A stretch of 64,000 bases of DNA, taken from the IMG/VR virus record IMGVR_UViG_3300022562_000410; one strand, written 5' to 3'. This DNA comes from an uncultured virus (IMG/VR IMGVR_UViG_3300022562_000410). Taxonomy: Duplodnaviria > Heunggongvirae > Uroviricota > Caudoviricetes. The position numbers were made by a program, and so were the translations under genes. This document shows, in pieces, positions 1-64,000 of the stretch (the stretch's first letter is position 1; the number at the start of each line of letters is the position of its first letter). Below the pieces are notes generated by a model. That model was not told the origin of the DNA. It did no database searches and saw only the letters and a program-made list of their open reading frames with translations.

Positions 1-3000
1 CGCTACGGTTATGAGCGCCGGGTCGAGGGCTGCGTCGATCCATTCACCGGCAAGGTCTATCTCGTATCCGGCAACATCGGCGACATGCCGACCATCCACC
101 GGGTGTTCGTCGAGGAATCGCTGGGTCACCACGGGCTGCGTGGCTTCTTCGGTAGTGAGTTCGACAACTTCCTTGATGAGATCATCCCCAACATCGAGGG
201 CAGTGATGCATGGAACGCCCTGCTGCGCGACTACAAGCACGTCGGTCGGTTAATCGCAAACAAGAATACGAGTCAGAGAGGAAGGCGGCTGGCGGCAGAA
301 GAGCTGCTGGCCAAGATGGATGTCGATCAGAACGTCTGGCAGAAGTTCGTCGCATGGGTGCGGAGCTGGCTGCGTTCCAGAGGGCTGATCACCAACTACA
401 CCGAGCAGGACCTGCGCCGGATCATGACGCAGGTTCACAACCGGATCATCAACGGCACGACCCCCCACCCATGGGGTGCCCGCAACCACCGACCATCGTA
501 CGCCGGAGCAGCGCCGTTCTCGATCCGGGCGTGGCACGGCTCACGCCACGAGTGGTACACCCCGAGGCTGGCTAAGGCCGGAACAGGCGAGGGCTTCAAT
601 GCCTTCGGCTGGGGGTTCTATGTAGCTGAGAATCGAGACGTTGCCGAGTACTACAAACTCTCGGGGATGGCGTCCGACCCCAGACTTTACCGGAAGATGC
701 TTGACACCAATGGGAACCACTTCAGGGAGTGGGACAATTCACCAGCCGCTGGCATCGCTGAGAATCTGTTCTACGATGCTGACGGAGATTACAACAAGGT
801 CCGTTCGATCCTTTCTTCTGCTTCTGGTGGGCAGCAGGCCCCGAAGTCGGCAGGACTTCGTAGAGAGGTTCTGGACATAATCACTCAGTGGGAAGCTGCC
901 GGAATAACACTGGAGGAGGCAAAGCCGGAGCCTGAGGGCAACATCTACGAGGTCCATATCGACGACGGGGTCGCTGCCAACATGTTGCTCTGGGAGTCCC
1001 CTCTCGAAGATCAGCCAGACGTCGTCAAAGCAGCAATCGAGAGTAACGAATGGGTGAAGCGCAAGCTGGCTTCATGGCGGATGAGCTTTGGTGGTCCCGC
1101 GATCAACGGTGAGGCGATCTACAAGGCCTTCGCGCAGGCACCCAGCGAGGGTATGTCTGAGAACCAACAGGCAGCGTCCGAAGCGCTGGCTGCGCTGGGG
1201 GTGACCGGGGTCAAATACTACGATGCAATCTCCCGGCCTATCGCTCGGGCGGCAAGGCGGGCGGCTGGTGGCCTGATCGGTCCACTGGCTAGTGCGATCA
1301 AGGGTGAGGAGGAAGCCAAGCCTCAGTACAACTACGTACTCTTCAACGAGAAGGACATCAACGTCGTGTCACGTAACGGCACGCCGTTTTCCATCAAGAC
1401 CAAAGGCCACATCAATGGCACTGGCCTGCGCGGCCATAGCGCTGGGGAGCACTACCCACTGATGGTGATCGGGCTGGGTAACCCAAACTCCCCAGTGGAT
1501 TCCCCAGACGCCCTCAAGTGGGCTGTACAGCGCCCAGACGGCTCGATAGAGGAGGAGCGGTTCGAGACCCCCGGTCAGGCACAGAAACGCGCTCAGGAGC
1601 TTGCTGAGGAGCTTTCGACGGTCCCCTTCTCGATTCTCCCCGACCCGGAATACGCTGAACGGTACCCGCATCCTGCAGAGCCGGAGGTTGGAGTTAATGA
1701 GAAAGGCAAGCCGTATCTGAAAAAAGGGAGTACCCCGGAGAGCGAGCGTTTCATGGAAGCTCGCGCCCGGATCATTGATCAGATCAAGCAGGAGGGCTTC
1801 GACCCCTACTTCGATCCTGCCCAGCGATATGATGTCGATCCCCAATATTACCCAACCCAGATCGAAACACTGGAAGCCAAGCCGGTGCAGGCCAAAGTGT
1901 TGGCCAAGTGGCGACGGAAGATCAAGACGCCAAGCGCTAAACGTCGGCTGCAGGAGGCCTATGACATGGGAGTCTTGCAGGGCTTCCATGATGGCTGGTA
2001 CAAGATGGGCCAGCTCGAAGCTGAGTTCATGAAAGAGTACGGCCCTGAGGATGGCCGGAGGATGTTTCAGGAACGCTTTCTCAATGCCATGGCGGCGACC
2101 ACTGCTGGTAACCGACCGGCCCAGAACTTCCTGATCGCCATGTACCTAAACTACCTGACGAACTTGGGCTTGCCGCTGCCAGAGGAAAGCCACCAGTTTC
2201 CGTCTCCATTGGGGACGCCTCGTGGCGCTCTCAATGTGAAGTCTTATAAGGACCTGATGGCTGAGGCACGGTGGCGGATTACTCAACCCAAGAGTCACAA
2301 CTTTGCCGCCAACTTCGCTGGCCATGAGCGCATGGCTACGATTGATTCCCAGATTGGTGAGATTGTCACTGGTAAAGCCAAGGGCGAGCTACAGAGAATC
2401 CTGCAGAATCGCTACGGAATCTTCGAAGAACTAGTCGTTCAGATGGCTGAGGAGAACGGGGTGTCACCACGCGAATTCCAAGAGGTGGCGTGGGGCGGCT
2501 ACAAGTACATGAAGGAGGGTTATACCGGCACACCGATGATCCAGATCGTCAACGAGGCGATCGAGCGCACATCGAGGATCACCGGGGCTTCACCCGAAGA
2601 GGTGGTCCGTCGCGGCATAGTCCGCAATGAGATGCCGATTTACTCCTTGCGTCGGCCCAGAGGAGTAGACGACGAACTGCGGATCGTCAACGAGAAGATC
2701 GCCCGGTCGTTCAGTGAGATGACGCTGGTTGACCGGGTCACCCACTGGTTCCATCAGATTCGCGATGCCATGGCCGCTGGTGATTTTATCTGGGGCCTGA
2801 AGCAAGGCGTGCTTGATGACGCTGCCGTAGTCGAGCGCTACGAGAAAGAGCTGTTCGGCGACCTGCAGGATGCGGCGATCTCTCCGTACAAGGCGATTCA
2901 TGCCACCAAGAACCTCGCTTCCGTAATGGCGGCGATCTCCAAGGTGGGTGTTCCAGAATATCGCAACGGAACTTTCGTCCCGGCGCAAGGACGCAAGGGC

Positions 3001-5409
3001 TTTATCGAAATCTTCCGGCCCCTGTTTGAGCATTCTGATGGCGATCTGCTGGAACTGTGGGAAGGCTATGCGGCAGCACGTCGTTCCCAACGCCTGATCC
3101 AAGAGACCAACCCGGACGGTACCAGTCGGGAGAAACTGTTCACGCAAGAGGAGATCAACAAGCTGTTGGCGCTGGAGCAGCGCTACCCCGAGTTCAAGGA
3201 CGTGTTCGACGACTGGACCGAGTTCAACAACCAGCTCCTCGATCTGGCGGTTGAGCAGGGGGTTATCAGTGAGGCTGAGCGTGAGGCATGGACGAAGTAC
3301 GACTACATTCCATTCTACCGGGCCATGGAGGAGATCGAAGGCATCGATCAGCGCACCGGCTGGGGTCGCGTCAAGGCTGGCATCGAGGGACAGAAGTACT
3401 TCGGTCGTCGTCTGAAGGGTGGTGAGCAGAAGCTGGCCAATGTGATCGAGAACATGTGGTTCAACACTGCCAGCATGGTCGACAAGATTTACAAGAACCA
3501 AGCAATGAACCGGGTCGTCGATATGCTCGAAGGCGTGGTCATGCACGAGATCGATATGCCGTGGGAGGCCGTCAGGATCACCAATGGCCAGCTCGCTTCC
3601 GCACTGAAGAGCGCGGGGCTGTTATCGAAGACCAACCAAACGCCGTTGCAGCAGGTTCAGGCCATGACTGCCGAGCAGCGCATGCAATGGAATAAGGTCT
3701 TCCGGCGCGTCCGTCCCACGGCACCAAATGTGGTGGCCGTCTCTCGTGAAGGTCGGCTGGCTTACTTCGAGGTGACCGATGAACTACTGCTAAGAACCCT
3801 GCAGGGGATGACAGCAGAGGGACTTGTCGGCTTCATGAAAGCGATGGGTTGGTCAAAGCACTTGCTTACCCGAATGGTCACACTGGACCCGGCCTTCATG
3901 GTCGCCAACTGGATGCGCGATACGCTGTCGGCATGGGTGACTTCCGATGCCAACTTCATCCCAGTTCTGGACTCGATCCGATCTGGGGGAGACGTCTTCA
4001 CCGAGAGCGGCAGCTACATCCAGATGATGATGTCTGGCCATGGTGGCGGTGGCTTCTATGATCTGACCGGAGGCAATGTCAGCCGGGTTCTAAAGGAAGA
4101 GCTGGCGCATGGTGGTCGGCACTGGGCACACAAGGTCTGGAACGGTTATATGAAGCTGGGCGCAGCCTCCGAGAACTCGAACCGTTTGGCGATCGCCAAC
4201 CGCATTCTGAAGAAGGGTGGCTCGGTTGCCGAAGCGATGTATCAGGCTCAAGATATTATGAACTTCACGATGTCGGGTGACTACGCCGCCATCAAGTTCC
4301 TGATCCGCACAGTGCCCTTCATGAACGCTCGCCTGCAGGGTCTCTATCGCCTCTACCGTGGCGCTAAGCAGCACCCGGTCGGGTTCATCGCCAAGGGCAT
4401 GGCGGTGGCCGCTGCGACGCTGGCATTGCTGGCTCGTAACTGGGATGACCCGGACTATGAGCGGCTGGAAGGGTGGCAGAAGGATACCAACTGGAACTTC
4501 TTCATTAACGGCTTCCACTATGCGCTGCCGAAACCGTTTGAGGTGGGTGTGATCTTCGGTTTGTTGCCGGAGCGAATTGCCCGAGCCCTGCTGGGCCGTG
4601 ATGACATGAAAGACTCACGGGATTCGCTGCTGCGAGCCATCGGCAGCACCTTTGCTTTTAATCCAGTCCCCCAGCTATTCAAACCAATCCTCGAACAGAT
4701 GATGGACTACAACTTCTTCATGGGTTCGCCGATCGTGGGGCAATCACTGGCCGGGTTGGAGCCTGCCGCCACCCATCTGCAGTACAACCCATGGACCTCC
4801 GAGGCTGCGGTCAAGTTGGGCGCGGCGATGCCGGACTGGATGGGTAAGCTGCGCTCACCACGCCGCATCGAGCATCTGGTTCGTGCCTACACCGGCACTA
4901 TGGGTCTGTACACTCTGAACGCGATCGACTGGATGATTCGTAGTGTCGACAAAGATCAGCCAGAGCCTCCAACCACGTACTGGTACGAACGGCCCGTGTT
5001 CTCCCGGTTCCTTAAGGGTGAGGCCAAGAGCGCCAAGTACAACAAGTACACCCAGCAACTCTATGACGTGATCGACGAATCGAACTCGGCGCAGCAGGCT
5101 TTCAACCTGTTAGCAGAGCAGGGGCGTAGGGATGAGGCGGTGGAAATCTACAAGAAGTTCGCTCCGCTAGTCGACCCGAGCGGTAAGGCTACTGAGGGTT
5201 CAGTTCGCAAGCAGCTCCTGCAGTACCAGTCAGCCATGCGCGAGATCAATAAGGCGCAGAGGGCGGTGATGACATCCAAGGAGCTGACCGGGGACCAAAA
5301 ACGAGAGCGCCTAGACCAGCTCCAGATGCGGCGTCACGAGATACTCGGGAACGCAGCCCACCTGCTGGAAATGATCGAAGATTTCGAGTTGCCAGAGCCT
5401 CAGCCATAG
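1..5409 (+). CDS. C-terminal part of giant polyvalent/DNA-ejection protein (5' truncated): metallopeptidase-like, ADP-ribosyltransferase-like, DUF7178/glycosylase-like and LPD38-like modules
   Basis: Frame is open from base 1 (RYGYERRVEGCVDPFTGKVYLV...), so the listed start at 85 is internal. Motifs: EESLGHHGLR; AWHGS...GTGEGFNAFGWGFY...YNYVLFNE; WY...MAATT...PKSHNF...TIDSQ...QEVAW; C-terminal VPFMNARLQGL, LPKPFEVGVIFG, PILEQMMDYNFF. Confidence 0.85.
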   Translation, partial: RYGYERRVEGCVDPFTGKVYLVSGNIGDMPTIHRVFVEESLGHHGLRGFFGSEFDNFLDEIIPNIEGSDAWNALLRDYKHVGRLIANKNTSQRGRRLAAEELLAKMDVDQNVWQKFVAWVRSWLRSRGLITNYTEQDLRRIMTQVHNRIINGTTPHPWGARNHRPSYAGAAPFSIRAWHGSRHEWYTPRLAKAGTGEGFNAFGWGFYVAENRDVAEYYKLSGMASDPRLYRKMLDTNGNHFREWDNSPAAGIAENLFYDADGDYNKVRSILSSASGGQQAPKSAGLRREVLDIITQWEAAGITLEEAKPEPEGNIYEVHIDDGVAANMLLWESPLEDQPDVVKAAIESNEWVKRKLASWRMSFGGPAINGEAIYKAFAQAPSEGMSENQQAASEALAALGVTGVKYYDAISRPIARAARRAAGGLIGPLASAIKGEEEAKPQYNYVLFNEKDINVVSRNGTPFSIKTKGHINGTGLRGHSAGEHYPLMVIGLGNPNSPVDSPDALKWAVQRPDGSIEEERFETPGQAQKRAQELAEELSTVPFSILPDPEYAERYPHPAEPEVGVNEKGKPYLKKGSTPESERFMEARARIIDQIKQEGFDPYFDPAQRYDVDPQYYPTQIETLEAKPVQAKVLAKWRRKIKTPSAKRRLQEAYDMGVLQGFHDGWYKMGQLEAEFMKEYGPEDGRRMFQERFLNAMAATTAGNRPAQNFLIAMYLNYLTNLGLPLPEESHQFPSPLGTPRGALNVKSYKDLMAEARWRITQPKSHNFAANFAGHERMATIDSQIGEIVTGKAKGELQRILQNRYGIFEELVVQMAEENGVSPREFQEVAWGGYKYMKEGYTGTPMIQIVNEAIERTSRITGASPEEVVRRGIVRNEMPIYSLRRPRGVDDELRIVNEKIARSFSEMTLVDRVTHWFHQIRDAMAAGDFIWGLKQGVLDDAAVVERYEKELFGDLQDAAISPYKAIHATKNLASVMAAISKVGVPEYRNGTFVPAQGRKGFIEIFRPLFEHSDGDLLELWEGYAAARRSQRLIQETNPDGTSREKLFTQEEINKLLALEQRYPEFKDVFDDWTEFNNQLLDLAVEQGVISEAEREAWTKYDYIPFYRAMEEIEGIDQRTGWGRVKAGIEGQKYFGRRLKGGEQKLANVIENMWFNTASMVDKIYKNQAMNRVVDMLEGVVMHEIDMPWEAVRITNGQLASALKSAGLLSKTNQTPLQQVQAMTAEQRMQWNKVFRRVRPTAPNVVAVSREGRLAYFEVTDELLLRTLQGMTAEGLVGFMKAMGWSKHLLTRMVTLDPAFMVANWMRDTLSAWVTSDANFIPVLDSIRSGGDVFTESGSYIQMMMSGHGGGGFYDLTGGNVSRVLKEELAHGGRHWAHKVWNGYMKLGAASENSNRLAIANRILKKGGSVAEAMYQAQDIMNFTMSGDYAAIKFLIRTVPFMNARLQGLYRLYRGAKQHPVGFIAKGMAVAAATLALLARNWDDPDYERLEGWQKDTNWNFFINGFHYALPKPFEVGVIFGLLPERIARALLGRDDMKDSRDSLLRAIGSTFAFNPVPQLFKPILEQMMDYNFFMGSPIVGQSLAGLEPAATHLQYNPWTSEAAVKLGAAMPDWMGKLRSPRRIEHLVRAYTGTMGLYTLNAIDWMIRSVDKDQPEPPTTYWYERPVFSRFLKGEAKSAKYNKYTQQLYDVIDESNSAQQAFNLLAEQGRRDEAVEIYKKFAPLVDPSGKATEGSVRKQLLQYQSAMREINKAQRAVMTSKELTGDQKRERLDQLQMRRHEILGNAAHLLEMIEDFELPEPQP

Positions 5410-14381: not shown

Positions 14382-15859
14382 GCGCGGGGACTCGCCCCCA
14401 GTTCAGGAACGATGATGAGGCAGAGGAGTTTGCCGATTGGATCATGTCGTTCCAAGACGATCCGTACGAATGGGTCCTTGCCATCTATCCTTGGGGCGAA
14501 CCGGGCACGGCGCTGGCGCATTATGACGGCCCTGATGACTGGCAGACGGAGGTGCTGCAGGGTGTTGCCGCAGAGCTGAAGGCGGGCAAGACCCAGATAA
14601 GGGTGGCTGTCAGTTCAGGCCACGGCATCGGCAAGACCGCTCTCGTTGCTTGGCTCATCCACTGGTTCATTTCCACCCACCCACATCCCCAGATCGTCGT
14701 CACGGCCAACACTGGCCAGCAGCTCACCAACAAGACGTGGCGTGAGCTGGCCAAGTGGAAGAACTACGCCATCAATGGTTGGATGTTCGAATGGACAGCG
14801 ACCAGCTATCGCTACAAGAGCGAAGAGGCCACATGGTTTGCCACGGCCACCAAGTGGTCGGCCCACAGCTCCGAGGCTTTCGCCGGGACGCACGAAGAAG
14901 ACATGAAGGTCATGATGGTGTTCGACGAAGCTTCTGGCATCGACGACATTATCTGGGAGGTTGCTGCAGGCGCTTTCACTACGGGTGGTCTCTGGTTCGC
15001 ATTCGGCAACCCGACCCGGAACACTGGCAGGTTCTACGAGGCAGCATTCGGGCGGCACCGTAAACGCTGGACAACCTACGTCATCGACTCGCGCAGAGCG
15101 AAGATGGCCAATCGTGAACTGATCGAAGAGTGGAAAGAGGACTGGGGCGAGGACAGTGACTACTTCAGGGTGCGCGTCAGGGGCTTGCCGCCGAAGCAAG
15201 GGCCGCTGCAGTTCATCAGCTCCGCCGTGGTCGATCTCGCAATAGCCCGTGAGATTCCACCAGAGGCGCTCTCAGACCGTATCCCTAGGATCATGGGGTT
15301 TGATGTGGCCAGACAGGGCGACGACGTCTCAGCGATCGTCATACGGCACGGCAGGAAGGTCATCGAGCTGGCGGATGGTGGTTACATCAAGCGGTTCCAG
15401 ATCAGGGACATTACCCAGCTCTGCCACCACGTGGCCAAGATCATCAACGAGAACTACCCAGACATGATCGTGGTGGATGGTACTGGTATCGGGGCCGGTG
15501 CAGTGGATTACCTCCGCCTGCTGGGCTATGACAATGTGATCGAGGCCCATGGCGGGGAAAGCGCCAGTGACCAGAAGGTATTTCTGAATAAGCGGATTGA
15601 AATGTGGGATAGGATGAGGCAATGGTTGGAAGGGGCCGACATTCCTGACGACCCCCAGCTTGCCGTTGACTTGACGACTCCTGAGTTTGCATTCGAGCAG
15701 AAGTCGCAGAAGATGAAGCTGGAGAGTAAAGAGGACATGAAAAAAAGAGGGGCGGACTCACCGGACAGCGGCGATGCGCTGGCCCTGACGTTTTATCATC
15801 AGGCTCCGAGTAAGTCCGCCCTCTTCACTGAGTCAAGCGCTGAACCGGAAGTGGTCTAG
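14378..15859 (+). CDS. terL: Terminase large subunit
   Basis: SGHGIGKT Walker A, VFDEA Walker B, GNP, GFDVAR and DSGDAL nuclease acidic residues. Confidence 0.95.
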   Translation: MSAGTRPQFRNDDEAEEFADWIMSFQDDPYEWVLAIYPWGEPGTALAHYDGPDDWQTEVLQGVAAELKAGKTQIRVAVSSGHGIGKTALVAWLIHWFISTHPHPQIVVTANTGQQLTNKTWRELAKWKNYAINGWMFEWTATSYRYKSEEATWFATATKWSAHSSEAFAGTHEEDMKVMMVFDEASGIDDIIWEVAAGAFTTGGLWFAFGNPTRNTGRFYEAAFGRHRKRWTTYVIDSRRAKMANRELIEEWKEDWGEDSDYFRVRVRGLPPKQGPLQFISSAVVDLAIAREIPPEALSDRIPRIMGFDVARQGDDVSAIVIRHGRKVIELADGGYIKRFQIRDITQLCHHVAKIINENYPDMIVVDGTGIGAGAVDYLRLLGYDNVIEAHGGESASDQKVFLNKRIEMWDRMRQWLEGADIPDDPQLAVDLTTPEFAFEQKSQKMKLESKEDMKKRGADSPDSGDALALTFYHQAPSKSALFTESSAEPEVV

Positions 15860-16227
15860 CTTTCCCGGCCAGTCTTGACCTTCGTGAACACCCCGATATA
15901 GAGCTGGAACTGGCCACGGTCTGTGATCCCGTAGCCATGGGCGGCGTCGAGCTTGTTGACGAACTGCCTGACGGTCAGTGCCGGTTCGTCTTCCTGACCG
16001 AACCCGGAAGCGTCGCAGAACAGTTCTTCTTCGATCTCCCAGCCCTTCGGGATGTGATCGCCGAGCAGGGGGATTTGCTTGAGCAGCGCAGGGATTTCGC
16101 CCCGCTCCACCTGAGCCTTGGCATCCGCCAGCTCGTAGTCCCAGAACATCTTGGGGTAAAGACCTCGCTGGGCGGCTTGAGCGCCAGCCTCAGCAGACAT
16201 GGCCTTGATGGTTTGCAGTGACATCAT
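15856..16227 (-). CDS. Hypothetical protein
   Basis: GAGGAG SD; converges on the terL stop. Confidence 0.7.
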   Translation of the reverse strand: MMSLQTIKAMSAEAGAQAAQRGLYPKMFWDYELADAKAQVERGEIPALLKQIPLLGDHIPKGWEIEEELFCDASGFGQEDEPALTVRQFVNKLDAAHGYGITDRGQFQLYIGVFTKVKTGRES

Positions 16228-16409
16228 GAGCAATTACTCCTCTCTTTGGTGGTGTGCTCCAGATGGTGTTCGACCATCTTTCGCAGTGTGTTAGTGCAGT
16301 TCGATGAGAACGTCTTCCCGTCTACGGTGACGACGTAAGTGTCGCCACCAATGAAACGGGCATACGTGCTCACCAGCCAGAACGCATGGTTGTAGAATGG
16401 GCTATCCAT
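16224..16409 (-). CDS. Hypothetical protein
   Basis: GGAGG SD; coupled overlaps. Confidence 0.55.
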   Translation of the reverse strand: MDSPFYNHAFWLVSTYARFIGGDTYVVTVDGKTFSSNCTNTLRKMVEHHLEHTTKERSNCS

Positions 16410-17298
16410 TGTCCCAATCCTCCAGCGAGCTGGCGATCTCGTACAGGCGCTGACGCTCGGCCTCCTGCCGTTCTATCATGGCGTCCATCCGGGTGCGGTC
16501 CATGTAGTGCTCGACCTTGGCCCGGATCAGGCGATCGAGGTAGCGGGGCTCCAGCGCATCCAGCTCCCAACTGTTGTGGCCGAACCGGGCGATGTAATCA
16601 GTCGCCCGAGAGTCGGTCAGTTTGGCCGGGTTTGGCGGTGGGTCCAGTTCATCGATCTGATCCATGTTCAGCGCAATCCGCTCGACCTCCACGGCCCCGG
16701 AGTACCGACTGAACATGTCCAGTCGATCACCGTTGTCGCGAGTCATGTCGATACCAGACGGGTCGTGGTCTCCCAAGTGCAGCAGGATAACCGGCTGGTT
16801 GTTCCTGCGGTACGTGAGAAAGCGCACACCAGCTTTTCTCTGCTCGGACTGGGATACATAGCCCCGGCACGAGAAGAACGGCACGTCGAGGTCCCGACAG
16901 GGCTTCTCGACGACACCAGCCAGCGCTTCTTTTTCGATCCAGACCTCGACCCGGTAGGGTTGATCCGCCCACAGATCAATTCGGTATCCAGCCGCAGCCG
17001 AGTGAATGATGTGAGCGGGGTCTTCCCAGTGGGGATTGATCTGCAGGTTGCGCGTACGATCCTCGATAGCTTCCCAGTCGATCAGGCCAGCCAGCCGCCC
17101 GTCACTGATGATGGTGCCCAGCCGCTTGTAGTTGCGTTGGGAATTCGCCATCAGATCGCGGGCAACGAACTGGTAGTACAACTGGCGCAGGGTGAGCACG
17201 AACCCATCATCCATGTATTCCCGGATGATCTGATTCGCTTGCTCGATGACCTGCAGGGTGGGCGCAGCGAAGTTGAACGATTGGTACTTGAACTTCAT
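16402..17298 (-). CDS. Topoisomerase VI subunit A/Spo11-like wHTH plus TOPRIM protein
   Basis: LTLRQLYYQ, VEVWIEKEAL, RGY, LGDHDPSG, WELDAL. Confidence 0.8.
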   Translation of the reverse strand: MKFKYQSFNFAAPTLQVIEQANQIIREYMDDGFVLTLRQLYYQFVARDLMANSQRNYKRLGTIISDGRLAGLIDWEAIEDRTRNLQINPHWEDPAHIIHSAAAGYRIDLWADQPYRVEVWIEKEALAGVVEKPCRDLDVPFFSCRGYVSQSEQRKAGVRFLTYRRNNQPVILLHLGDHDPSGIDMTRDNGDRLDMFSRYSGAVEVERIALNMDQIDELDPPPNPAKLTDSRATDYIARFGHNSWELDALEPRYLDRLIRAKVEHYMDRTRMDAMIERQEAERQRLYEIASSLEDWDNG

Positions 17299-17555
17299 GA
17301 CAGCGCCTCCTTCAGCAGGTTGCGTGCGCCCTTACTGATCGAGACCTTCAGCCCCAGAGAATTCCGGGGCCGAAGCATCTGGCGAGCCAGTGAGGACAGC
17401 GTGAGGCCCTCTAGGGGCCGACATTCCAGTGAACCCTTCACCTTGGTAAGGCGGATACGTGATCCGTCCATATAAACGATCTGGGTCCACTTGGGGCCTT
17501 CCTTGGTGACGACGACCCGGAAGCCGCCGTCCACGAACGCTCTACCGTGGTTCAT
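17295..17555 (-). CDS. Hypothetical basic protein
   Basis: GGAGG SD; ATGA overlap with downstream gene. Confidence 0.65.
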   Translation of the reverse strand: MNHGRAFVDGGFRVVVTKEGPKWTQIVYMDGSRIRLTKVKGSLECRPLEGLTLSSLARQMLRPRNSLGLKVSISKGARNLLKEALS

Positions 17556-17880
17556 TGAGAGCCTCCGCCCATTCGGACCGGTAAGCGGCAGTGATTGTCT
17601 CGCCTTCGTAGTGTGTGACTACGTCTTCGAGCTTGATCGCCCACCAGAACGAAGACCAGCGGCCATAGGTCGGCTCACGGTGCCAGTCGTCGACCCAACG
17701 GGCCAACTTGACCGCCCACAGCTCGCCTTTCGGTGGCCGCTCGCCGCGCAGGGTGTTCTCGATGACGTGCATACCCTCGATGGGCCAGCACTGGTCGTAG
17801 CGCAGCATGTCGATAGGGAACGGGCCGCGCCCCCGGACGATGAACGTCTGGAAGTACGGTGCTCCTTTGTTTCGTTTCAT
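17542..17880 (-). CDS. Hypothetical phage protein
   Basis: AGAGGAG SD after hammerhead A; FPIDMLRYDQCWP. Confidence 0.75.
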   Translation of the reverse strand: MKRNKGAPYFQTFIVRGRGPFPIDMLRYDQCWPIEGMHVIENTLRGERPPKGELWAVKLARWVDDWHREPTYGRWSSFWWAIKLEDVVTHYEGETITAAYRSEWAEALNEPR

Positions 17881-17901
17881 AGCAAATCTCCTCTGTTGAT
17901 G

Positions 17902-17967
17902 TGACCTATCTCATCAGTGGCGGTAGGTCAGCTCCGCCAGACCCCGGTCCTCAGCCGGGGTTTCGAT
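17902..17967 (-). ncRNA. Hammerhead ribozyme A (type II, pseudoknot)
   Basis: AUC-GAAA-CCCCGG[CUGAGGA]CCGGGG-UC^-UGGCGG[AGCUGACCUA]CCGCCA-CUGAUGA-GAU-AGGUCA; predicted cut 17940/17939. Confidence 0.93.
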
Positions 17968-18567
17968 TCACACAATGGCGCTGTCCAGAGCTTCCGTGAT
18001 GGTGGATTTCGCTTCATCGATGTAGCTCTGAAGCTCTTCCTTCCGGCGCTCTTCTTCATCGCGCTCGTGCTGAGCTTTGTTGGCTTCCCAGTCGTTGAGG
18101 TCGGACTGATAGTCCTCGTCGTCGTCATAGTCTTCCGGGTCCGGTTCGGGTTCGTCGAACTCTTCTTCGTCGAAGTCGAATTCATCGATGTAGTCCAGCT
18201 CGCTCTCGACGTTGTCCAGCGCGTCGACGCGCTCCTGCAGCAGCTCACCCGTGGGCGAGTACTGGAGCGACTCGGGCATGTTGTCCAGACTGGACTGCGT
18301 CTCGTCGCGCAGGTCCTCGATCTGGCTGCGAACCTCGTCGACTAGCGTTTCCATGTCAGTCGGGTCCTCAAGCTCAAAGTCTTCGACATACTCCTGCAGA
18401 CTGTAGACGCTGCTGAAGTATGCAGACTGTGTGAGCTGGGAGTTGCGGGGCCGGGTCTTCGAGTAGCGCTTCCCGCCGTAGCGGAACTTCCACCAGAAGT
18501 ACGGCTCACCTGCCTTGACGGCTGGGTTGTCCTTGCGGGCCTTTTTCACGTAATGAACACGTGGCAT
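17968..18567 (-). CDS. Hypothetical protein with basic N-terminus and very acidic C-terminal half
   Basis: Likely start MPRVHY at 18567 after AGAGGAG; DEFDFDEEEFDEPEPDPEDYDDDEDY. Confidence 0.8.
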   Translation of the reverse strand: MPRVHYVKKARKDNPAVKAGEPYFWWKFRYGGKRYSKTRPRNSQLTQSAYFSSVYSLQEYVEDFELEDPTDMETLVDEVRSQIEDLRDETQSSLDNMPESLQYSPTGELLQERVDALDNVESELDYIDEFDFDEEEFDEPEPDPEDYDDDEDYQSDLNDWEANKAQHERDEEERRKEELQSYIDEAKSTITEALDSAIV

Positions 18568-18590
18568 GGTGTATCTCCTCTGTTGATGAT

Positions 18591-18658
18591 GATCCTGTCT
18601 CTTCAGAGTGGGTAGGATCGGATTCCCACTGACCCCGGTCCTCAGCCGGGGTTTCGAC
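18591..18658 (-). ncRNA. Hammerhead ribozyme B (type II, pseudoknot)
   Basis: GUC-GAAA-CCCCGG[CUGAGGA]CCGGGG-UC^-AGUGGG[AAUCCGAUCCUA]CCCACU-CUGAAGA-GAC-AGGAUC; predicted cut 18631/18630. Confidence 0.93.
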
Positions 18659-18659
18659 A

Positions 18660-19448
18660 TTACCCTTCCCAGTCGTCAGCCGTGATGGCGGGCTTCTGGG
18701 GCACGAACCCGGTGACACGGTCCATGAGATCATGGAGGCGGATCGTCCGGGGCATCAACTCGATCAGCGACACGCCCTTGTTGGCGGGCTTCAGGGCCTC
18801 GGTGGCGGCGTTGAACATGCGCCATGCGGTCTGCTCGCCGTGGTCGTAGGACGGCTCGTCCCACTCCTGCACGACCTTACCGACCCGGCTGGGGTTGATC
18901 ACCTCGGACCGCAGCATGTCGACGATGATGTGGTCGGCCTGCCGCTTGTCCTTGATCCGGTACTCGCGATAGTGCTCCCAGCGGGCCTCCTGATTGACCT
19001 TGTAGAGCTGGGTCTGGTTGACCGCATTGCCGATCAGGTCAGGCAGGTCGCGCATGATGTGGACCGTGTGCTTGCGGCTGAAACGAATCTCAGCCGAGAA
19101 CGCAAGGTTGTCACACACGAAGACGTGTGAGCCGAAGCCCATCGCAGCCGGGAAGCTCTTGTCGATCGAGTTCCGAATGCCGACGACCAGCGCGAACTCT
19201 TCCTGAACTGAGCTTCCATTCAGAAGCTCGATCAGGCCGAAGTACCGGGCCTTGTCGTGGGTCAGGCTGTGCGCCTGATTGCCGAAACGAAAGCCCATCG
19301 CCTGCAGCCGCTCTTCGGCCATATCCACGACGGTCTGGTGACCGACCGGAAAGTAGGTGTCCGTAGCCGGAGGCAGGACGATTCCTTCAAGCTCTTCGCG
19401 CTCGACGTGGCTGGCACCGCAGTGCAGCATAAGGTTTGCTCTTGCCAT
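18660..19448 (-). CDS. DUF932-family protein
   Basis: TYFPVGH, GIRNSIDKS, VFVCDNLAF, RKHT, TAWRMFNAATE. Confidence 0.8.
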   Translation of the reverse strand: MARANLMLHCGASHVEREELEGIVLPPATDTYFPVGHQTVVDMAEERLQAMGFRFGNQAHSLTHDKARYFGLIELLNGSSVQEEFALVVGIRNSIDKSFPAAMGFGSHVFVCDNLAFSAEIRFSRKHTVHIMRDLPDLIGNAVNQTQLYKVNQEARWEHYREYRIKDKRQADHIIVDMLRSEVINPSRVGKVVQEWDEPSYDHGEQTAWRMFNAATEALKPANKGVSLIELMPRTIRLHDLMDRVTGFVPQKPAITADDWEG

Positions 19449-19474
19449 GGTAGTTCTCCTCTGTTGAAGTGTGT

Positions 19475-19536
19475 TTGGCAGTCTCTTCAGACCCGGAATG
19501 CCAATCCGGGTGACGCCCCCTCCGGGGCGTTTCGAC
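19475..19536 (-). ncRNA. Hammerhead ribozyme C (type II, pseudoknot)
   Basis: GUC-GAAA-CGCCCC[GGAG]GGGGCG-UC^-ACCCGGA[UUGGCAU]UCCGGGU-CUGAAGA-GAC-UGCCAA; predicted cut 19512/19511. Confidence 0.93.
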
Positions 19537-19628
19537 TAGTGTGTGAACAGATAGCCAAGGCTCAGCCAGATGGCCGAGTAGGCAGCGATGGCAGCGTAGG
19601 CTTGGGCAAGCGGGATGCGGTATTTCAT
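19536..19628 (-). CDS. 30-aa single-TM microprotein, not in ORF track
   Basis: MKYRIPLAQAYAAIAAYSAIWLSLGYLFTH; GAGGT SD; ATGA overlap; stop abuts hammerhead C. Confidence 0.7.
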   Translation of the reverse strand: MKYRIPLAQAYAAIAAYSAIWLSLGYLFTH

Positions 19629-19837
19629 GATCCCACCTCACAAGCCTTCAGGAAGCGCTCACGATCGAAGTTGGGGTTCTCGTGGCGGAAGTAGTCCGCC
19701 AGCGCTCCAGCCATCGACCTGCGAGTGGCCTCAGCACCCTTCTTAAAACCGGGTGTCAGGTACTTATCATCAGGATCGAACTTGCGATCACGAACGATGC
19801 TTGCGATAGCCTCGAAATGCTTGCGCGTCATGCTCAT
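19625..19837 (-). CDS. Small phage protein (70 aa)
   Basis: MSMTRKHFEAIA...NPNFDRERFLKAC; AGAGGAG SD after hammerhead D. Confidence 0.8.
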   Translation of the reverse strand: MSMTRKHFEAIASIVRDRKFDPDDKYLTPGFKKGAEATRRSMAGALADYFRHENPNFDRERFLKACEVGS

Positions 19838-19855
19838 GTTGGTCTCCTCTGTCGG

Positions 19856-19922
19856 TGGCAGTCTCATCAGTATCGGAATGCCAATCCGATATACCTGCCC
19901 CTCCTCTAGGACAGGTTTCAAC
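19856..19922 (-). ncRNA. Hammerhead ribozyme D (type II, pseudoknot, GUA site)
   Basis: GUU-GAAA-CCUGUCC[UAGAGGAG]GGGCAGG-UA^-UAUCGGA[UUGGCAU]UCCGAUA-CUGAUGA-GAC-UGCCA; predicted cut 19892/19891. Confidence 0.9.
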
Positions 19923-19997
19923 GATGGCCGGGATTAACCCACACCGGCAGGGTCCGTTCACCCTCCCGGCACTAGAAGCCGGGAGGGTTTGCGGTAG

Positions 19998-20486
19998 CTA
20001 TACAGCTTCACGCTTGGTGGCTTCGTCACCAGTGGCGATCTTCAGGGTGAAGTGGAACCCACGGCGCTTCTTCGCCGGGGTGGCTTCGGACTGCGTGTAG
20101 CGAACCGTGTCGATGTATTCGACCAGATCGTCGTCCAGATCAGGCACGAAGTTCCTGATCTTGTAGTGAGCCTCGGGCGGCAGGTAGACCTTGTAGATGC
20201 AGTAGCCTTGCGGCTGCATCGTACGAGCATTCATATCACGCTCTTCCTGCAGGCGCTGGCACTCCCTGAGAGAGGCATGTGTCTGCCAGTAGGCAGCGCT
20301 GCTGGTGAAGAAGTGGTACTCACGCTTGCGATCTTTTCTCCAGCGGTCCTCGCGGAAGCTAGAGATCACTTCGAGGCAATCCTCGAAATCATCAGCCGTG
20401 GCGTCACTGCCAGACTGGCGCAGATCGGGGATCAAGGTTTCACGCAGATGGGTGACCAGTGCGTAGATATTGTCGAAGCTATGCAT
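19998..20486 (-). CDS. Hypothetical protein, first gene of the leftward operon
   Basis: AGAGGAG SD after hammerhead E. Confidence 0.75.
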   Translation of the reverse strand: MHSFDNIYALVTHLRETLIPDLRQSGSDATADDFEDCLEVISSFREDRWRKDRKREYHFFTSSAAYWQTHASLRECQRLQEERDMNARTMQPQGYCIYKVYLPPEAHYKIRNFVPDLDDDLVEYIDTVRYTQSEATPAKKRRGFHFTLKIATGDEATKREAV

Positions 20487-20508
20487 TTCGTTCTCCTCTG
20501 TTGATGGG

Positions 20509-20575
20509 TGGCCTGTCTCATCAGAGCGGGTAGGCCATCTCCCGCTGACCCCGTCGTGGTGACCGGGGTTTCAAC
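20509..20575 (-). ncRNA. Hammerhead ribozyme E (type II, pseudoknot)
   Basis: GUU-GAAA-CCCC(G)GUC[ACCAC]GACGGGG-UC^-AGCGGG[AGAUGGCCUA]CCCGCU-CUGAUGA-GAC-AGGCCA; predicted cut 20547/20546. Confidence 0.92.
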
Positions 20576-20848
20576 AATCAGAGGAGGAGATTGTTGAGTA
20601 GGGCGAGTCGTTACCTTCTGTCCCCGAGCGGTTTACGGCTTGCTCCGCTTGCCTCGGGAAGGTCGCTACTACCAACGTCGCTTCTACAGGTTCCTGCTGA
20701 CATTCGCCTTTCGGCCAAGTGGTCAGACTACGCAGCGTCTTCCCGTCCCCAGTTTCACCGAGTGGGTCTCGTCGAAGTCTTGGCTTCGCTTCCCCGGCCA
20801 GTGCCAGATGGGGGCTGTGGGCCGTGGTCACGTCCTGTGACAGCTCCC

Positions 20849-20877
20849 ACTTTAGGGGAACCCAGTTCCCATGTCAA
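20849..20877 (-). promoter_or_regulatory. Leftward sigma70 promoter with palindrome in the spacer
   Basis: TTGACA-17 nt-TAAAGT; spacer holds perfect GGGAAC-N3-GTTCCC (20856..20870). Confidence 0.85.
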
Positions 20878-59775: not shown

Positions 59776-62700
59776 ATGGACAAGGATTATTCGTCGTTTG
59801 CGGAAGATAAAACCTATACGCAGGAAACGGAAGCTCCACCTTTAACCGCATCAGCAGCGCTAGAGATACCAGAATCAAGCGACTATTACTCGTCGTTTTC
59901 TAGCGATATCGACTATACCAAGGGCCCCGAACCAGCTCAGGGTGCGCCGGGAGAAGAACCCTCTTTCCTGAAGAACCTCGTCGCTGAGTGGGGTGTTGGT
60001 TCCGGTCAGCTCGCTCAAGGTATCGGGCAACTGATGGACGACTGGCTCGGATGGAAGAGCGGAGCTGAATTCGTCCGCAACGCAGGGCAGCGAGCCGAGG
60101 AGTACTGGAAAGGCTCGATCCCCGAGGACGAGTGGAACCGGATCGAGAAGGAGACTCAGAAGAACTTTATGACCCTCAAGGACGAGGGCGACTGGTGGAA
60201 CCCCATGGACTGGGAGCGGGGCGACATGGGTCTCGAAGGCTTGCTCTATATGGGCATGCAGTCCATGCCAGCCACGGTGGCCACCATGCCGATCGCCGGA
60301 CTTGGTGGTAAGTTGGGGATGGCTGCGATCAGCAAGATACCGGGCGTATCCAAGCTGATAACCACTTCTAAGGTCGGAAAACTAGCTGAGGCGGCTGGCG
60401 GATCGGCGGAAGCGATCAAGGCCGGGAAGCGGGCCGATAAGATTCTAAACCGGATTCAGGGAACCCTCATGGGCACTACCTATGGTGGCGCTGAGGGCGC
60501 GATTTCGGCTGGCCAGACGGGCTACCAAATCAATCAGCAGGTTGACAACATGCGGTTCGAGGACCTGCTGTTGAAAAGTGACTATGCCCGGAACGTATAC
60601 GAGGCCCACATCGCCGAGGGTATGGACCCTGAGGAGGCGGCGAACCAGACACGGGAAATGGTCAAGGAGAAGGCCAGATCAGACGCCATGTGGAAGACCA
60701 TGGTCACCACAAGCGCTCTGGGCGCTCCCATGGGCATGTTCTTCTCCTCCGTGCTGCTCAGGACACCATGGGCTAAGGCTTTCGCTTCCGGCAAGGTGGC
60801 TGGATTGGTTGAGGGCGCAGCAGGTGAGGCCGCACAGGAGACTTTGCAATCGGCCTTTGAGCAGTATTGGCAGAACGAGGCGACACAGAAGTATGCGGAC
60901 AAGACGATCAAGCTCTCCGATGGTGTGTTCGAGGCTGCTCTCACAGGTGGTATTGTCGGCGGTGTTCTGGGTGGCGCTTTCGGCGTGGCTGGTACGCCAA
61001 CTAAGGCTCAGGCCCAGAGGGAAGAAACCCGCACCCAGAACCTGAAGGACAACCTGAAGGTTGAGGTGCATTCACGACTGGCCGCTTCTAGTCTGATGCA
61101 GAACTATGGCAAGACGCCAGAGCAGGCTACTGAGATTATCACCCCGATTATGCAGCGCTACTCGGAAACCAGAAATCTGGTTGAGGCGGCTGCTGACCTG
61201 AAGTTCCTTGAGATGACAGGTCGTACTCGTGAGCGTGGCCTTGATAATGTTGGGCAGGCCCAGCCGGATTACGGCGACCTCGATGTCAGTGTTGAAGAGG
61301 AGGCTGGGCAGGAGCGCAACGGCCACACCCTGAAGTACCCAGCCGGGAAGATCAACGGCACGGTCGGCGCTGACGGCATGAACGTCGATATCGTTGGTCC
61401 GGGCACCGGCAATCGCATCTACATCGCCGAGAAGTTGGCCCCTGATGGTACCTTCGAGCAGCACAAGGTCCTGTATGGCTTCGAAAATGAAGAGCAGGCC
61501 ATGGATGCGTTCTACAGCACATGGGGCCGGGACGACGCCGACAACCTCGGCAACCTGACTGAGGTTAACAATCAGGAGCTGAACGACGCTCTGGCCCGCT
61601 GGACACGTGACTATGGAACTGAACTGGGACCAGCCACCGATGAGCCGCTGACGCCAGAAGAGGACCTCGCGCTTCGCAAGGATGAAGACTTGCAGGTTGG
61701 CATCGAGGATGTCCAGTCCCAGCTTGATTATGTACAGAACGAGGACGGCTCTTACCCGACCGAAGCTGAGCCTCTGCTCAACCGCCTGAAGGTGCTACAG
61801 GAAGAGAAACAGCGCCGGATCAACTCTGGTGAGTGGCAGCAAGAAGCGGGCGTGGAACAGCCCGTGGAACAAGGTGAACAGGGTTCCCAGCCAGAGGGCG
61901 AAAATCAAGCAACCACACAGGTTTCAGAGGAAGCTCCACGTGGAACAGAAGGGGGTGAAACACCACTCAGCCTGCGCGAGGGTGGCCGTACCATGCGCGG
62001 GCCATACCCGGAGCGGATACGGCCTTCCGAGGCTGCTGGTGCTGGTGAGAGGGCGGTCGATGTCGATTTCTTGCATCTCTCTCGCGAACCTGATCTGCAG
62101 GTATTGAAGGGCGAGAAGGCTAGCACCTCCGCCGTCCGGCGTACGCGAGCCAAGGTGGGTCGTGAAGCCACTGCCAATCGAGTTTACATCTACGCCCAGC
62201 AAGAGAAGGCGATGGGTGGCCGTTCTGTTAGTGGCAATGAGTCCGTTGTCTCTCGGGCCTCGGATCAGGTCTACAGCGGGACCGCTACCAACCTGTACGA
62301 CTTTGATGCTGATCCGCTGAACCTGCTGCAGGGGGCAAAGATGCCCTCTGAAAGCATGGAAGCCGCCATCCTCAAGGCGGGTTACGACGGTTGGTACTAC
62401 GAGAAGTTCCCGAAAATACATGGCGGCATGGGCGTCATCCTCAACAAGGATGTGGCGGCGATGTATCACGGTCGCGCCCAGAAGGTTAAGGAGCTGTTGC
62501 GCGAGCCGAGCATGTTCCAACATCTGGTCGCGTGGGAAACCATCCCCGGCAGTGCCTCCCCATTTGCCGCAGCCACCTCTCTGCTGACCCCGGCAGAAGC
62601 TCAGGTGCTGAACGAGAAGCTGCTGCTCGGCGTGGTGATCCAGAAAGACCTCCGTAGTGATATGCTGGCCTCGGCCATGGGACTTCCATCGCGGCTGCTG

Positions 62701-64000
62701 TTACAGCGCTGGGGCGGATATTCCGGTAAGGTCATGCCGTCGATGCAGGTTGGTCTTGACAGCGCCCTGCAAGCCAACCTGTATTCGGCGGCGATTAAGC
62801 TGATCTACCAGCAGGATGCCGTGCCATGGATGCATGCCACGCCCAAGGGGGACAGGGACGGCATCGAAATCGAGCTGGACAGAACACCGACCCAGAAGCA
62901 GCTCGAAGCCTTCCAGCGTGAACTTGAGAAAAATCTCGGGCAGTTTGTTGGGTTCACGGTCATGCCGGATGGCAGGATCATGGTCGGGAACTACGATGAG
63001 AATGTATCCAGAGCGCAGTTTGTAGCGCGAGTGGATCGCTCGGCAGCAGTGCTTCCAAGTGGTACAATGACCTCCTTCAAGTTCGAGGGCGCGTATCGTG
63101 ACGAAAGCCAGCAAGAAACTAAAGAACTTGCGCTACGCTGGGCAAGCGAAGCCGGATCACCGAATCTACAAGAGTGGATTTCAACTGCTCAGGCCCGTGC
63201 GGCAAAGGCCGCAGGGGAATTCTTCAGCTCCCTCCCAAGAAGCCACGCCGCCCGCCAAGCCTACGAAAACTCAGCAGTAACCCCGCTCAGCCTGCTGCCG
63301 GAGGAGTTCCAGCTCACTCCTCCCGACGAAGAGGCTGAGGCCGAATACAAGGACCCATTCTATTCAGCCCTTCTCCGAACGGTGGAGGAGGGTTCGCAGC
63401 GTGGTATGCCAAAGAAGGGAGCCAAGGCCATCAAGGAATGGCTGCTTGCTGCCCAGAGGAAAGGTCTGTTCAAGAAGGAGGAGTACGACTGGCTGGACCT
63501 TGATCGTGTGTTCGAGGATTACAGCGAGGTCGGCGCTCCCGAAATGAAGCGTCAGGACCTACTCGATTACGTTAAGAGAAATCAGGTCAGGATTGAGGAC
63601 TCCTTTGCTGGTGCGCCAGACCGTGCAGCGTTCCGTCCTTACGATATAGCCCTCGGTGATCTGCTGGATTACATCTATACCCTCAGTGCCACCAGCGGGA
63701 TCAATGAGAGCGCCCTGAAGATGTGGGCCAACGGCACTGACGTCGGGGGCATAGAAGCTATCCCAGAGCATCAGCGTAATGAGCTGCTGAGGCGTCATGA
63801 AAAGTTCATCCAGCTTGAGGCGCAGTCCATCGAGCGCGGCCTCAAGACGGATCGACCGGCAACCAAGTATGAGGAATACAGTCTGGCCGGTGGTCGGAAT
63901 GCTCGCGAACTACTACTGGTTGTCCCCGGTATTGGTGAGTGGGGCGATGGGCATATATGGAATCAGGACGGTCGAAAGCGGGCGGTTGTTCATGTCCGAT
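59776..64000 (+). CDS. N-terminal part of giant polyvalent/ejection protein (3' truncated; absent from ORF track) with degenerate inorganic pyrophosphatase-like domain
   Basis: ATG 59776; frame spot-checked open to window end; AGEAAQE helical region; GTVGADG..VD...HKVLYGF at ~61270..61530; YEEYSLAGGRNARELLL...VVHVR at the end. Confidence 0.85.
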   Translation, partial: MDKDYSSFAEDKTYTQETEAPPLTASAALEIPESSDYYSSFSSDIDYTKGPEPAQGAPGEEPSFLKNLVAEWGVGSGQLAQGIGQLMDDWLGWKSGAEFVRNAGQRAEEYWKGSIPEDEWNRIEKETQKNFMTLKDEGDWWNPMDWERGDMGLEGLLYMGMQSMPATVATMPIAGLGGKLGMAAISKIPGVSKLITTSKVGKLAEAAGGSAEAIKAGKRADKILNRIQGTLMGTTYGGAEGAISAGQTGYQINQQVDNMRFEDLLLKSDYARNVYEAHIAEGMDPEEAANQTREMVKEKARSDAMWKTMVTTSALGAPMGMFFSSVLLRTPWAKAFASGKVAGLVEGAAGEAAQETLQSAFEQYWQNEATQKYADKTIKLSDGVFEAALTGGIVGGVLGGAFGVAGTPTKAQAQREETRTQNLKDNLKVEVHSRLAASSLMQNYGKTPEQATEIITPIMQRYSETRNLVEAAADLKFLEMTGRTRERGLDNVGQAQPDYGDLDVSVEEEAGQERNGHTLKYPAGKINGTVGADGMNVDIVGPGTGNRIYIAEKLAPDGTFEQHKVLYGFENEEQAMDAFYSTWGRDDADNLGNLTEVNNQELNDALARWTRDYGTELGPATDEPLTPEEDLALRKDEDLQVGIEDVQSQLDYVQNEDGSYPTEAEPLLNRLKVLQEEKQRRINSGEWQQEAGVEQPVEQGEQGSQPEGENQATTQVSEEAPRGTEGGETPLSLREGGRTMRGPYPERIRPSEAAGAGERAVDVDFLHLSREPDLQVLKGEKASTSAVRRTRAKVGREATANRVYIYAQQEKAMGGRSVSGNESVVSRASDQVYSGTATNLYDFDADPLNLLQGAKMPSESMEAAILKAGYDGWYYEKFPKIHGGMGVILNKDVAAMYHGRAQKVKELLREPSMFQHLVAWETIPGSASPFAAATSLLTPAEAQVLNEKLLLGVVIQKDLRSDMLASAMGLPSRLLLQRWGGYSGKVMPSMQVGLDSALQANLYSAAIKLIYQQDAVPWMHATPKGDRDGIEIELDRTPTQKQLEAFQRELEKNLGQFVGFTVMPDGRIMVGNYDENVSRAQFVARVDRSAAVLPSGTMTSFKFEGAYRDESQQETKELALRWASEAGSPNLQEWISTAQARAAKAAGEFFSSLPRSHAARQAYENSAVTPLSLLPEEFQLTPPDEEAEAEYKDPFYSALLRTVEEGSQRGMPKKGAKAIKEWLLAAQRKGLFKKEEYDWLDLDRVFEDYSEVGAPEMKRQDLLDYVKRNQVRIEDSFAGAPDRAAFRPYDIALGDLLDYIYTLSATSGINESALKMWANGTDVGGIEAIPEHQRNELLRRHEKFIQLEAQSIERGLKTDRPATKYEEYSLAGGRNARELLLVVPGIGEWGDGHIWNQDGRKRAVVHVR

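Follow-up and report, generated by a model that had tools for sequence, protein, structure and literature searches.

The minus strand of the viral sequence IMGVR_UViG_3300022562_000410, a stretch of 64,000 nucleotides (nt) from an uncultured phage that is analysed here at its full length and referred to as the window, carries five complete type II hammerhead ribozymes between positions 17900 and 20576. The five copies lie within 2.7 kb and occupy the first half of an operon, one ahead of each of its first five genes and on the same strand as these genes. We consider it probable (roughly 70%), judging from the sequence, that all five are functional and that, set in cassettes of stop codon, hammerhead, ribosome-binding site (RBS) and start codon, they would self-process the operon transcript into separate messenger RNAs (mRNAs). 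The copies, numbered HH1 to HH5 in transcript order, are as follows (pseudoknot lengths in base pairs, bp):

20576-20507, minus strand: HH1, cut at 20547/20546, leader to the ATG 60 nt, pseudoknot 6 bp.
19923-19854, minus strand: HH2, with a GUA triplet, cut at 19892/19891, leader 54 nt, pseudoknot 5 bp.
19537-19473, minus strand: HH3, cut at 19512/19511, leader 63 nt, pseudoknot 6 bp.
18659-18589, minus strand: HH4, with a 12-nt loop I, cut at 18631/18630, leader 63 nt, pseudoknot 6 bp.
17968-17900, minus strand: HH5, cut at 17940/17939, leader 59 nt, pseudoknot 6 bp.

Along the strand, every copy runs through the 5' strand of stem II, GAAA, the stem III hairpin, the cleavage triplet (GUC in four copies, GUA in HH2), the stem I hairpin, CUGAUGA or CUGAAGA, the 3' strand of stem II and a short tail that pairs with loop I. 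The core is complete in all five, comprising CUGA(U/A)GA, G12-A13-A14 and the A15.1-U16.1 pair. A script parse of the five copies yields a stem III hairpin of 6-9 bp and a stem I hairpin of 6-7 bp, both closed by loops, and an open stem II of 3-4 bp made by the flanks. From HH1 to HH5 the pseudoknots between loop I and the 3' tail are UGGCCU/AGGCCA, UGGCA/UGCCA, UUGGCA/UGCCAA, GAUCCU/AGGAUC and UGACCU/AGGUCA. A pseudoknot of this type, with 4 bp or more, occurs in most type II hammerheads. The stem III hairpin is the same in HH4 and HH5, while HH2 and HH3 have loop I and the pseudoknot in common. Concerning the pairs beside the core, 1.1-2.1 and 15.1-16.1 are standard in all five copies, and 10.1-11.1 is G-C in HH3, HH4 and HH5 and a G10.1-U11.1 wobble in HH1 and HH2, which corrects an earlier description.

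The elements had been proposed in a first-pass annotation made from the letters alone, and that description holds up well. All five are present where it had placed them, with the core intact; the pseudoknots have the sequences that it listed and are all of at least 5 bp; the three helices with an open stem II give the pseudoknotted type II topology that it named; and the new 5' ends that it predicted (20546, 19891, 19511, 18630 and 17939), as well as the leaders of 54-63 nt, agreed exactly when recomputed. It had further placed three elements at upstream stop codons, and HH3, HH4 and HH5 do adjoin or overlap such stops, the one at HH3 belonging to an open reading frame (ORF) of 30 codons. The RBS that it described as common to the five cassettes is the identical octamer CAGAGGAG ahead of all five hammerhead-led genes.

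The Rfam type II search that the annotation had proposed as a check bore out only part of the set. With RF02276 (Hammerhead_II; gathering score 37 bits) HH3 (49.6 bits) and HH1 (38.1) pass the gathering score, HH5 (35.5) and HH2 (25.3) fall below it, these four matches all being full-length (model positions 1-66), and HH4 is not listed. Because of these misses and low scores the copies were tested by two further covariance models. The first, R1, was built from HH1, HH4 and HH5 only, since HH2 or HH3 fell out of register in MAFFT alignments of five or four copies, and was run over the whole window with filters off. It recovers the left-out HH3 at E 4.5e-9 and the left-out HH2 at E 1.2e-6, and the next match in the 64 kb, at E 1.6, is merely the reverse complement of a stem III hairpin. 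The second, R2, was built without any window sequence from 109 hammerheads of 70 other viral contigs, which had been gathered with R1, so that their selection is not fully independent. It gives exactly five matches in the 64 kb at E<=1, with E values from 9.5e-19 to 4.3e-9 and scores of 73.0 bits for HH5, 67.6 for HH1, 58.8 for HH4 (E 1.2e-14), 57.9 for HH3 and 39.4 for HH2. The phage subgroup is better caught by a model made from phage copies than by RF02276. No other ribozyme or RNA family was found in the window at E<=0.5, save a weak BSnc120 match (24 bits versus a gathering score of 114).

The structure is also conserved well beyond the window. When a viral collection was scanned by pattern for type II hammerheads that share this stem II, at least 135 stretches were found, and since the pattern was seeded with GTCGAAAC the sample represents one subgroup. 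Run on 72 sources (70 contigs, the 55-kb phage L055 and the window), R1 gives 126 matches in 70 sources, among the matches listed. In the alignment of these 126 sequences, which was fitted to the model and so favours structure, 99.1% of 1899 cells form standard pairs, versus 66.4% in shuffles and 25-50% when the partners are slid by 1-3 columns, and changes on both sides occur in 15 of the 16 pairs among the matches listed. As a pseudoknot cannot be part of a covariance model, it was tested apart from it: the cognate loop I and tail form at least 5 contiguous Watson-Crick bp in 92 of 126 copies, versus 7.1% of 2468 non-cognate pairs, and 45 distinct pseudoknot sequences occur among the related hammerheads listed. 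SD-like (Shine-Dalgarno-like) tetramers in the stem III loops, seen in four of the five window copies, were rejected as a general feature, their overall count being 24 of 126 versus 18.4 expected.

Placement is equally regular. It was counted for 124 hammerheads, two of the 126 being dropped for want of the exact CTGANGA string. The hammerhead starts between -3 and +6 nt from the stop of an open frame of at least 50 codons in 101 of 124 cases, compared with 5.2% of 6200 random same-strand positions; an SD sequence, a start codon and an ORF of at least 30 codons follow within 12-60 nt after the core in 104 of 124, compared with 11.6% at random; and both features are combined in 83 of 124, compared with 0.7% of the random positions. 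Hence, the cassette of stop codon, hammerhead, RBS and start codon is general in the sampled subgroup. The hammerhead-led genes of the other contigs are mostly small and, in 88 of 98 cases, without a Pfam family, the remaining ten being DUF932 (two), phi29-type SSB (two), AAA_5 (three), ArdA, Bro-N and DUF7249. Within about 5 kb of the seed, and among the matches listed, 40 sources have one match, 20 have two and three have three; larger sets comprise four matches in three sources, five in two (one of them this window), seven in one and eight in one. The set of eight, in contig L106, spans 3.2 kb and has ArdA as one of its hammerhead-led genes; the set of seven, in L109, spans 2.7 kb.

The annotation had also suggested looking for the same array in related phages, and a closer relative was found in the metagenome contigs L203 and L204, whose DUF932 protein is 75% identical to that of the window. 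Hammerheads lie directly before and after this DUF932 gene, at the same junctions as in the window, and the gene after the second one is a homologue of gene 4 of the operon (61% identity over 82 residues). Stems I and III and the pseudoknot have other sequences there and are still paired, around an unchanged core, so that the variation with retained pairing first noted between the five window copies is seen both in this relative and in the set of 126. With respect to window positions 18500-19700, L203 (1-2028) and L204 (1-2682) hold an extra unit, made of a 133-codon gene plus a hammerhead, between the small hydrophobic ORF that precedes HH3 and the DUF932 gene. In contig L095 the order of the homologues of genes 4 and 5 is reversed, and here too a hammerhead separates the two. 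Therefore gene-plus-hammerhead units behave as modules. A near-identical 47.9-kb viral record, G001, has the same hammerheads as the window. The common-leader pattern CTGANGAGA..CAACAGAGGAG occurs in 10 other viral loci, nine of them without a model match; only L055, an unrelated phage, has a real hammerhead, the single one in its whole record, with the same CAACAGAGGAG leader. Among annotated phage records, 12 match only the phrog_6247 gene of the distal operon (3-4% of the query) and none matches over the hammerhead region.

Both the arrangement and its interpretation have a precedent. Perreault et al. (2011; PMC3088659) reported clustered type II hammerheads flanking single prophage genes, with arrays in Clostridium scindens, Azorhizobium caulinodans and Agrobacterium tumefaciens, and proposed that the transcripts are processed into single-gene mRNAs. 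Three of their tandem arrangements cleave in vitro, during transcription, and that of A. tumefaciens also does so in E. coli. With the core consensus listed in the Methods of that paper, C3 U4 G5 A6 N7 G8 A9, G12 A13 A14, A15.1-U16.1 and H17, which was the one used here for membership, the window holds an array of the same kind: close copies with same-strand genes in phage DNA. Common to both are the type II topology, the pseudoknot between loop I and the 3' tail, and several copies flanking single genes or short blocks; accessory genes recur as well, ardA in the A. tumefaciens array and ArdA and DUF932 among the hammerhead-led genes of the present survey and window. The window has five copies versus three in the arrays tested in 2011, and the tight packing of stop, hammerhead and RBS, together with an anti-RBS leader hairpin at the first copy (see below), are features that the sections of that paper drawn on here do not describe. 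In Desulfovibrio vulgaris, three type II hammerheads by phage-derived genes cleave in vivo, where the 5'-OH and cyclic-phosphate ends were detected by cyPhyRNA-seq (PMC8782182); these are single copies at three separate genome locations, in contrast to the array inside one operon in the window. The novelty implied by the first-pass annotation therefore does not stand, since a 2011 paper had already put forward both the arrangement and its reading, and arrays with more copies are common; the locus adds a clear-cut case to a known kind of system.

The processing itself can be pictured as follows. Each hammerhead would fold as it is transcribed, with the flanks paired as stem II, hairpins at stems I and III and the pseudoknot of 5-6 bp, and would cut constitutively and co-transcriptionally after C17 (A17 in HH2). 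The expected products are, first, a leader RNA some 300 nt long, then one mRNA for each of genes 1 to 4, with the small hydrophobic ORF on that of gene 2, and finally an RNA that holds gene 5 together with the four further genes downstream, which are translationally coupled. The upstream product would retain its stop codon, from which the new 3' end is 24-29 nt away, and termination would therefore be normal; it would end in the G+C-rich stem III hairpin with a 2',3'-cyclic phosphate. The downstream product would open with the stem I hairpin, a 5'-OH at its base, followed by a uniform leader and the identical RBS. A 5'-OH end has a protective role against RNase E, from which these products might benefit. 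The likely benefit would be translation signals that do not depend on context, together with hairpin-capped ends, and hence a lifetime of its own for each cistron without recourse to host RNases. What the sequences show is the motifs, with their placement, conservation and covariation; that the locus is transcribed and cleaved in vivo, and which way stability would shift, is inferred. The self-processing into gene-sized mRNAs that the annotation proposed fits the layout, and similar triple arrays cleave (PMC3088659); the stability benefit that it attached to this depends on the host.

Several observations weigh against functional self-processing at every junction. HH4 is not listed by Rfam even when a 161-nt stretch is searched at E<=10. 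HH1 and HH2 have the wobble next to the core, where U-G occurs in only 4 of 124 distinct rows of the related set, a count affected by a seed pattern that forced C, and cleavage of both copies may be slow because of it; U11.1 is also found in the HH1 orthologue of L204, alongside a full core. Hammerheads are found at none of 50 viral loci around phrog_6247 homologues (41-60% identity, 6-kb flanks), so that the array is a lineage-specific accessory feature. The predicted accessibility of the RBS, going from the uncleaved to the cleaved RNA, changes from 0.41 to 0.45 for HH3 and from 0.40 to 0.57 for HH4 and falls from 0.60 to 0.43 for HH5; a clear rise is predicted only for HH1 (0.02 to 0.52) and HH2 (0.43 to 0.80), and a general role in unmasking the RBS is thus not supported. 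Finally, the function of bacterial and phage hammerheads is described as largely elusive in a 2019 review.

The reverse effect on stability has the strongest claim among the alternatives: cleavage could shorten mRNA life, its 5'-OH and cyclic-phosphate ends marking early messages for host decay in the manner of glmS and RNase J, which would give a brief pulse of expression. The same review, in its account of glmS, states that the cleaved mRNA is degraded by cellular RNases, lowering expression, and that in RNase J hosts a 5'-OH can trigger decay. The choice between stabilisation and marking for decay lies with the host nucleases, which may favour decay; transient expression would also suit the mostly small, accessory hammerhead-led genes, 88 of 98 of which have no Pfam family. 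Against this, the new 5' end lies at the base of a stem I of 6-7 bp and the new 3' end 1 nt beyond a stem III of 6-9 bp, so that both ends are seated on hairpins, the opposite of an exposed entry site for decay, and every cistron keeps a strong, identical RBS. We regard decay marking as unlikely.

Still less probable is that the main role lies in the DNA, with the units of hammerhead and RBS serving as portable recombination junctions for the gain, loss and shuffling of genes and RNA cleavage being secondary. The modular behaviour described above would fit such a role: L203/L204 differ from the window by one unit of a 133-amino-acid gene plus a hammerhead, the homologues of genes 4 and 5 are reversed in L095 around a hammerhead, HH4 and HH5 have identical stem III hairpins, HH2 and HH3 have a common loop I and pseudoknot, and the unrelated L055 has one hammerhead with the same leader. 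A mere recombination site, however, needs neither an intact core nor the compensated stems and pseudoknot of 126 copies, and the two roles are not mutually exclusive.

Circular mRNAs, which gene-length RNAs could form if re-ligated by the reverse reaction or by a host RtcB-type ligase with the ends joined via the near-invariant stem II, are very improbable. Internal fragments would bear the 5'-OH and 2',3'-cyclic phosphate needed for ligation, and neighbouring copies could largely exchange their stem II strands (GAC/GUC), but the fragment from HH4 to HH5 could form just two hybrid stem II pairs, and Perreault et al. (PMC3088659), who had raised circularisation as a possibility, looked for circular or spliced products and detected none. 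We would be equally surprised if some or all copies were inactive relics or structured spacers, i.e. protective hairpins without cutting, as the G-U at 10.1-11.1 in HH1 and HH2, the 25.3 bits of HH2 and the absence of HH4 from the Rfam matches might suggest, since all invariant core positions are intact in five of five, R2 scores the copies at 39-73 bits and the L204 orthologue of HH1 keeps the same U11.1 with a full core.

The first copy stands apart from the others by what precedes it, namely a leader that follows a promoter-like site and a hairpin that reaches into the ribozyme:

20849-20877, minus strand: sigma-70-like promoter TTGACA-17-TAAAGT, 10 of 12 matches, in a divergent, A+T-richer gap.
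20577-20842, minus strand: leader, about 265 nt long, which separates the promoter-like site from HH1 and stands ahead of HH1 in place of a gene.
20572-20596, minus strand: hairpin CAACAAU/AUUGUUG with loop CUCCUCCUCUG at 20589-20579, its 3' arm overlapping the 5' strand of HH1 stem II.

Promoter-type matches in the region are not above shuffles (3 versus 2.2), and the -35 block and its flank are kept in the relative L204; 20877-20849 is probably a host-type promoter that starts the minus-strand transcript. Its spacer holds a perfect palindrome, GGGAAC-TG-GGTTCCC, which could be an operator; the spacer of the L204 orthologue differs. The stretch from the promoter to the first start codon has 77% column identity with L204 over 464 columns, with indels that break the reading frames, and the leader is therefore probably a non-coding RNA; an 86-codon GTG frame that crosses it (20831-20571) was ruled out as a gene by the same indels. 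The leader matches no Rfam family.

The loop of the hairpin contains CUCCUCUG, the exact complement of the RBS octamer CAGAGGAG. Together with the U that precedes it, this 11-nt loop makes a 12-nt block identical in the window and in L204 (about 930-965), and the stem is compensated, being AACAUU/AAUGUU in L204 versus CAACAAU/AUUGUUG here. Nearest-neighbour energies, which ignore tertiary contacts, are -24.3 kcal/mol for the hairpin form, in which the 5' strand of stem II is taken up, -19.4 for the HH1 hammerhead fold alone and -30.3 for this fold plus a helix between the anti-SD and the SD. The rise predicted for the gene 1 RBS on cleavage (0.02 to 0.52) is a probability of being unpaired. 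As a lead and not a result, the hairpin may, for as long as HH1 is uncut, serve as a clamp on the weak stem II of this ribozyme and keep the RBS of gene 1 masked. An 8-nt anti-SD upstream of a hammerhead is found only at HH1 among 104 examined, and non-cognate pairs reach 8 nt in 10 of 1545; one genome-contig scan found no further homologues of the leader or of the anti-SD hairpin, and in two viral scans L207 and L209 were chance matches without the CUGANGA core, this phage being otherwise the only match. By these comparisons the anti-SD hairpin appears to be special to this lineage. An extended version, in which the clamp and mask before cleavage are joined by a freed leader, about 265 nt long and some 300 nt as the cleaved 5' product, acting in trans as an anti-RBS regulator of all processed messages, is unlikely in our judgement; if true, it would tie ribozyme processing to a common translational control and would account for the identical RBS in every cassette.

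Engineered parts of comparable design include RiboJ ribozyme insulators and hammerhead aptazymes that free a sequestered Shine-Dalgarno sequence. In RiboJ-type insulators a self-cleaving ribozyme just upstream of the RBS gives a standard 5' leader, as the window elements would, and in ribozyme-gated RBS designs the cut separates the anti-SD strand from the SD, as it would at HH1. Those designs are engineered, whereas the window elements are natural, of type II and arrayed, with a predicted unmasking that is clear only for HH1.

The window as a whole is phage DNA, from a genome of roughly 64 kb or larger. An SU10-like portal, a major head protein, tail fibres and a RusA resolvase are encoded on the plus strand downstream, and RecT, an exonuclease, a helicase and SSB upstream. 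Very large plus-strand ORFs run off both ends of the window (1-5409 and 59776-63999), one with an LPD38 domain and the other combining an InPase domain with PHROG matches that are DarB-like or virion-RNA-polymerase-like; both resemble giant polyvalent virion proteins. Of the ORFs taken as likely genes, only those of the hammerhead operon, 20486-15856, form a run of several genes in succession on the minus strand. An early timing of this operon would follow only from its promoter type (the sigma-70-like match) and gene content. Its features, with protein lengths in amino acids (aa), are:

20493-20500, minus strand: RBS CAGAGGAG of gene 1, the octamer found before all five hammerhead-led genes.
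19998-20486, minus strand: gene 1, 162 aa, without a family (ORFan).
19961-19987, minus strand: G+C hairpin of 10 bp directly after the gene 1 stop and about 35 nt before HH2, without a U tract.
19625-19837, minus strand: gene 2, 70 aa, ORFan; a homologue in contig L146 is likewise preceded by a hammerhead.
19536-19628, minus strand: small hydrophobic ORF of 30 codons, overlapping the gene 2 stop (ATGA), its own stop TAG inside stem II of HH3.
18660-19448, minus strand: gene 3, 262 aa, DUF932 (PF06067, 26 bits versus a cut-off of 23).
17968-18567, minus strand: gene 4, 199 aa, phrog_4068, with a basic N-terminus and a very acidic C-terminal half (Asp/Glu).
17542-17880, minus strand: gene 5, 112 aa, phrog_11674.
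15856-17555, minus strand: rest of the operon, four overlapping or adjoining genes of 86, 298 (phrog_6247, 'DNA topoisomerase'), 61 and 125 aa.

The hairpin after gene 1, which lies partly within a weak EBER1 alignment of the Rfam search, may be a 3' stabiliser or a pause site. The small hydrophobic ORF ends in ..YLFTH*, and a similar small ORF ending in ..YLVTH* precedes a hammerhead in L203/L204 (about 250-336 in L203), which suggests a real small membrane peptide. Homologues of the DUF932 gene are flanked by hammerheads in L203, L204, L205, L111 and L094, and those of gene 4 are preceded by one in L095 and L203. Gene 4, which has no supporting family, might from its charge pattern be a DNA mimic or an anti-restriction-type protein. 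R1, run over the window, finds no hammerhead between the four distal genes.

For the part that hammerheads play in phages the locus does not change the overall picture. What it offers is a compact and very regular test case, with five cassettes, one RBS and a probable host-type promoter, to which are added a close relative with compensated orthologous ribozymes and a difference of one cassette, and a first ribozyme coupled to a conserved anti-RBS leader. It brings within reach of experiment the questions of whether cleavage stabilises, destabilises or insulates a message, whether hammerhead units serve as joints for gene shuffling, and whether a ribozyme-gated RBS exists in nature.

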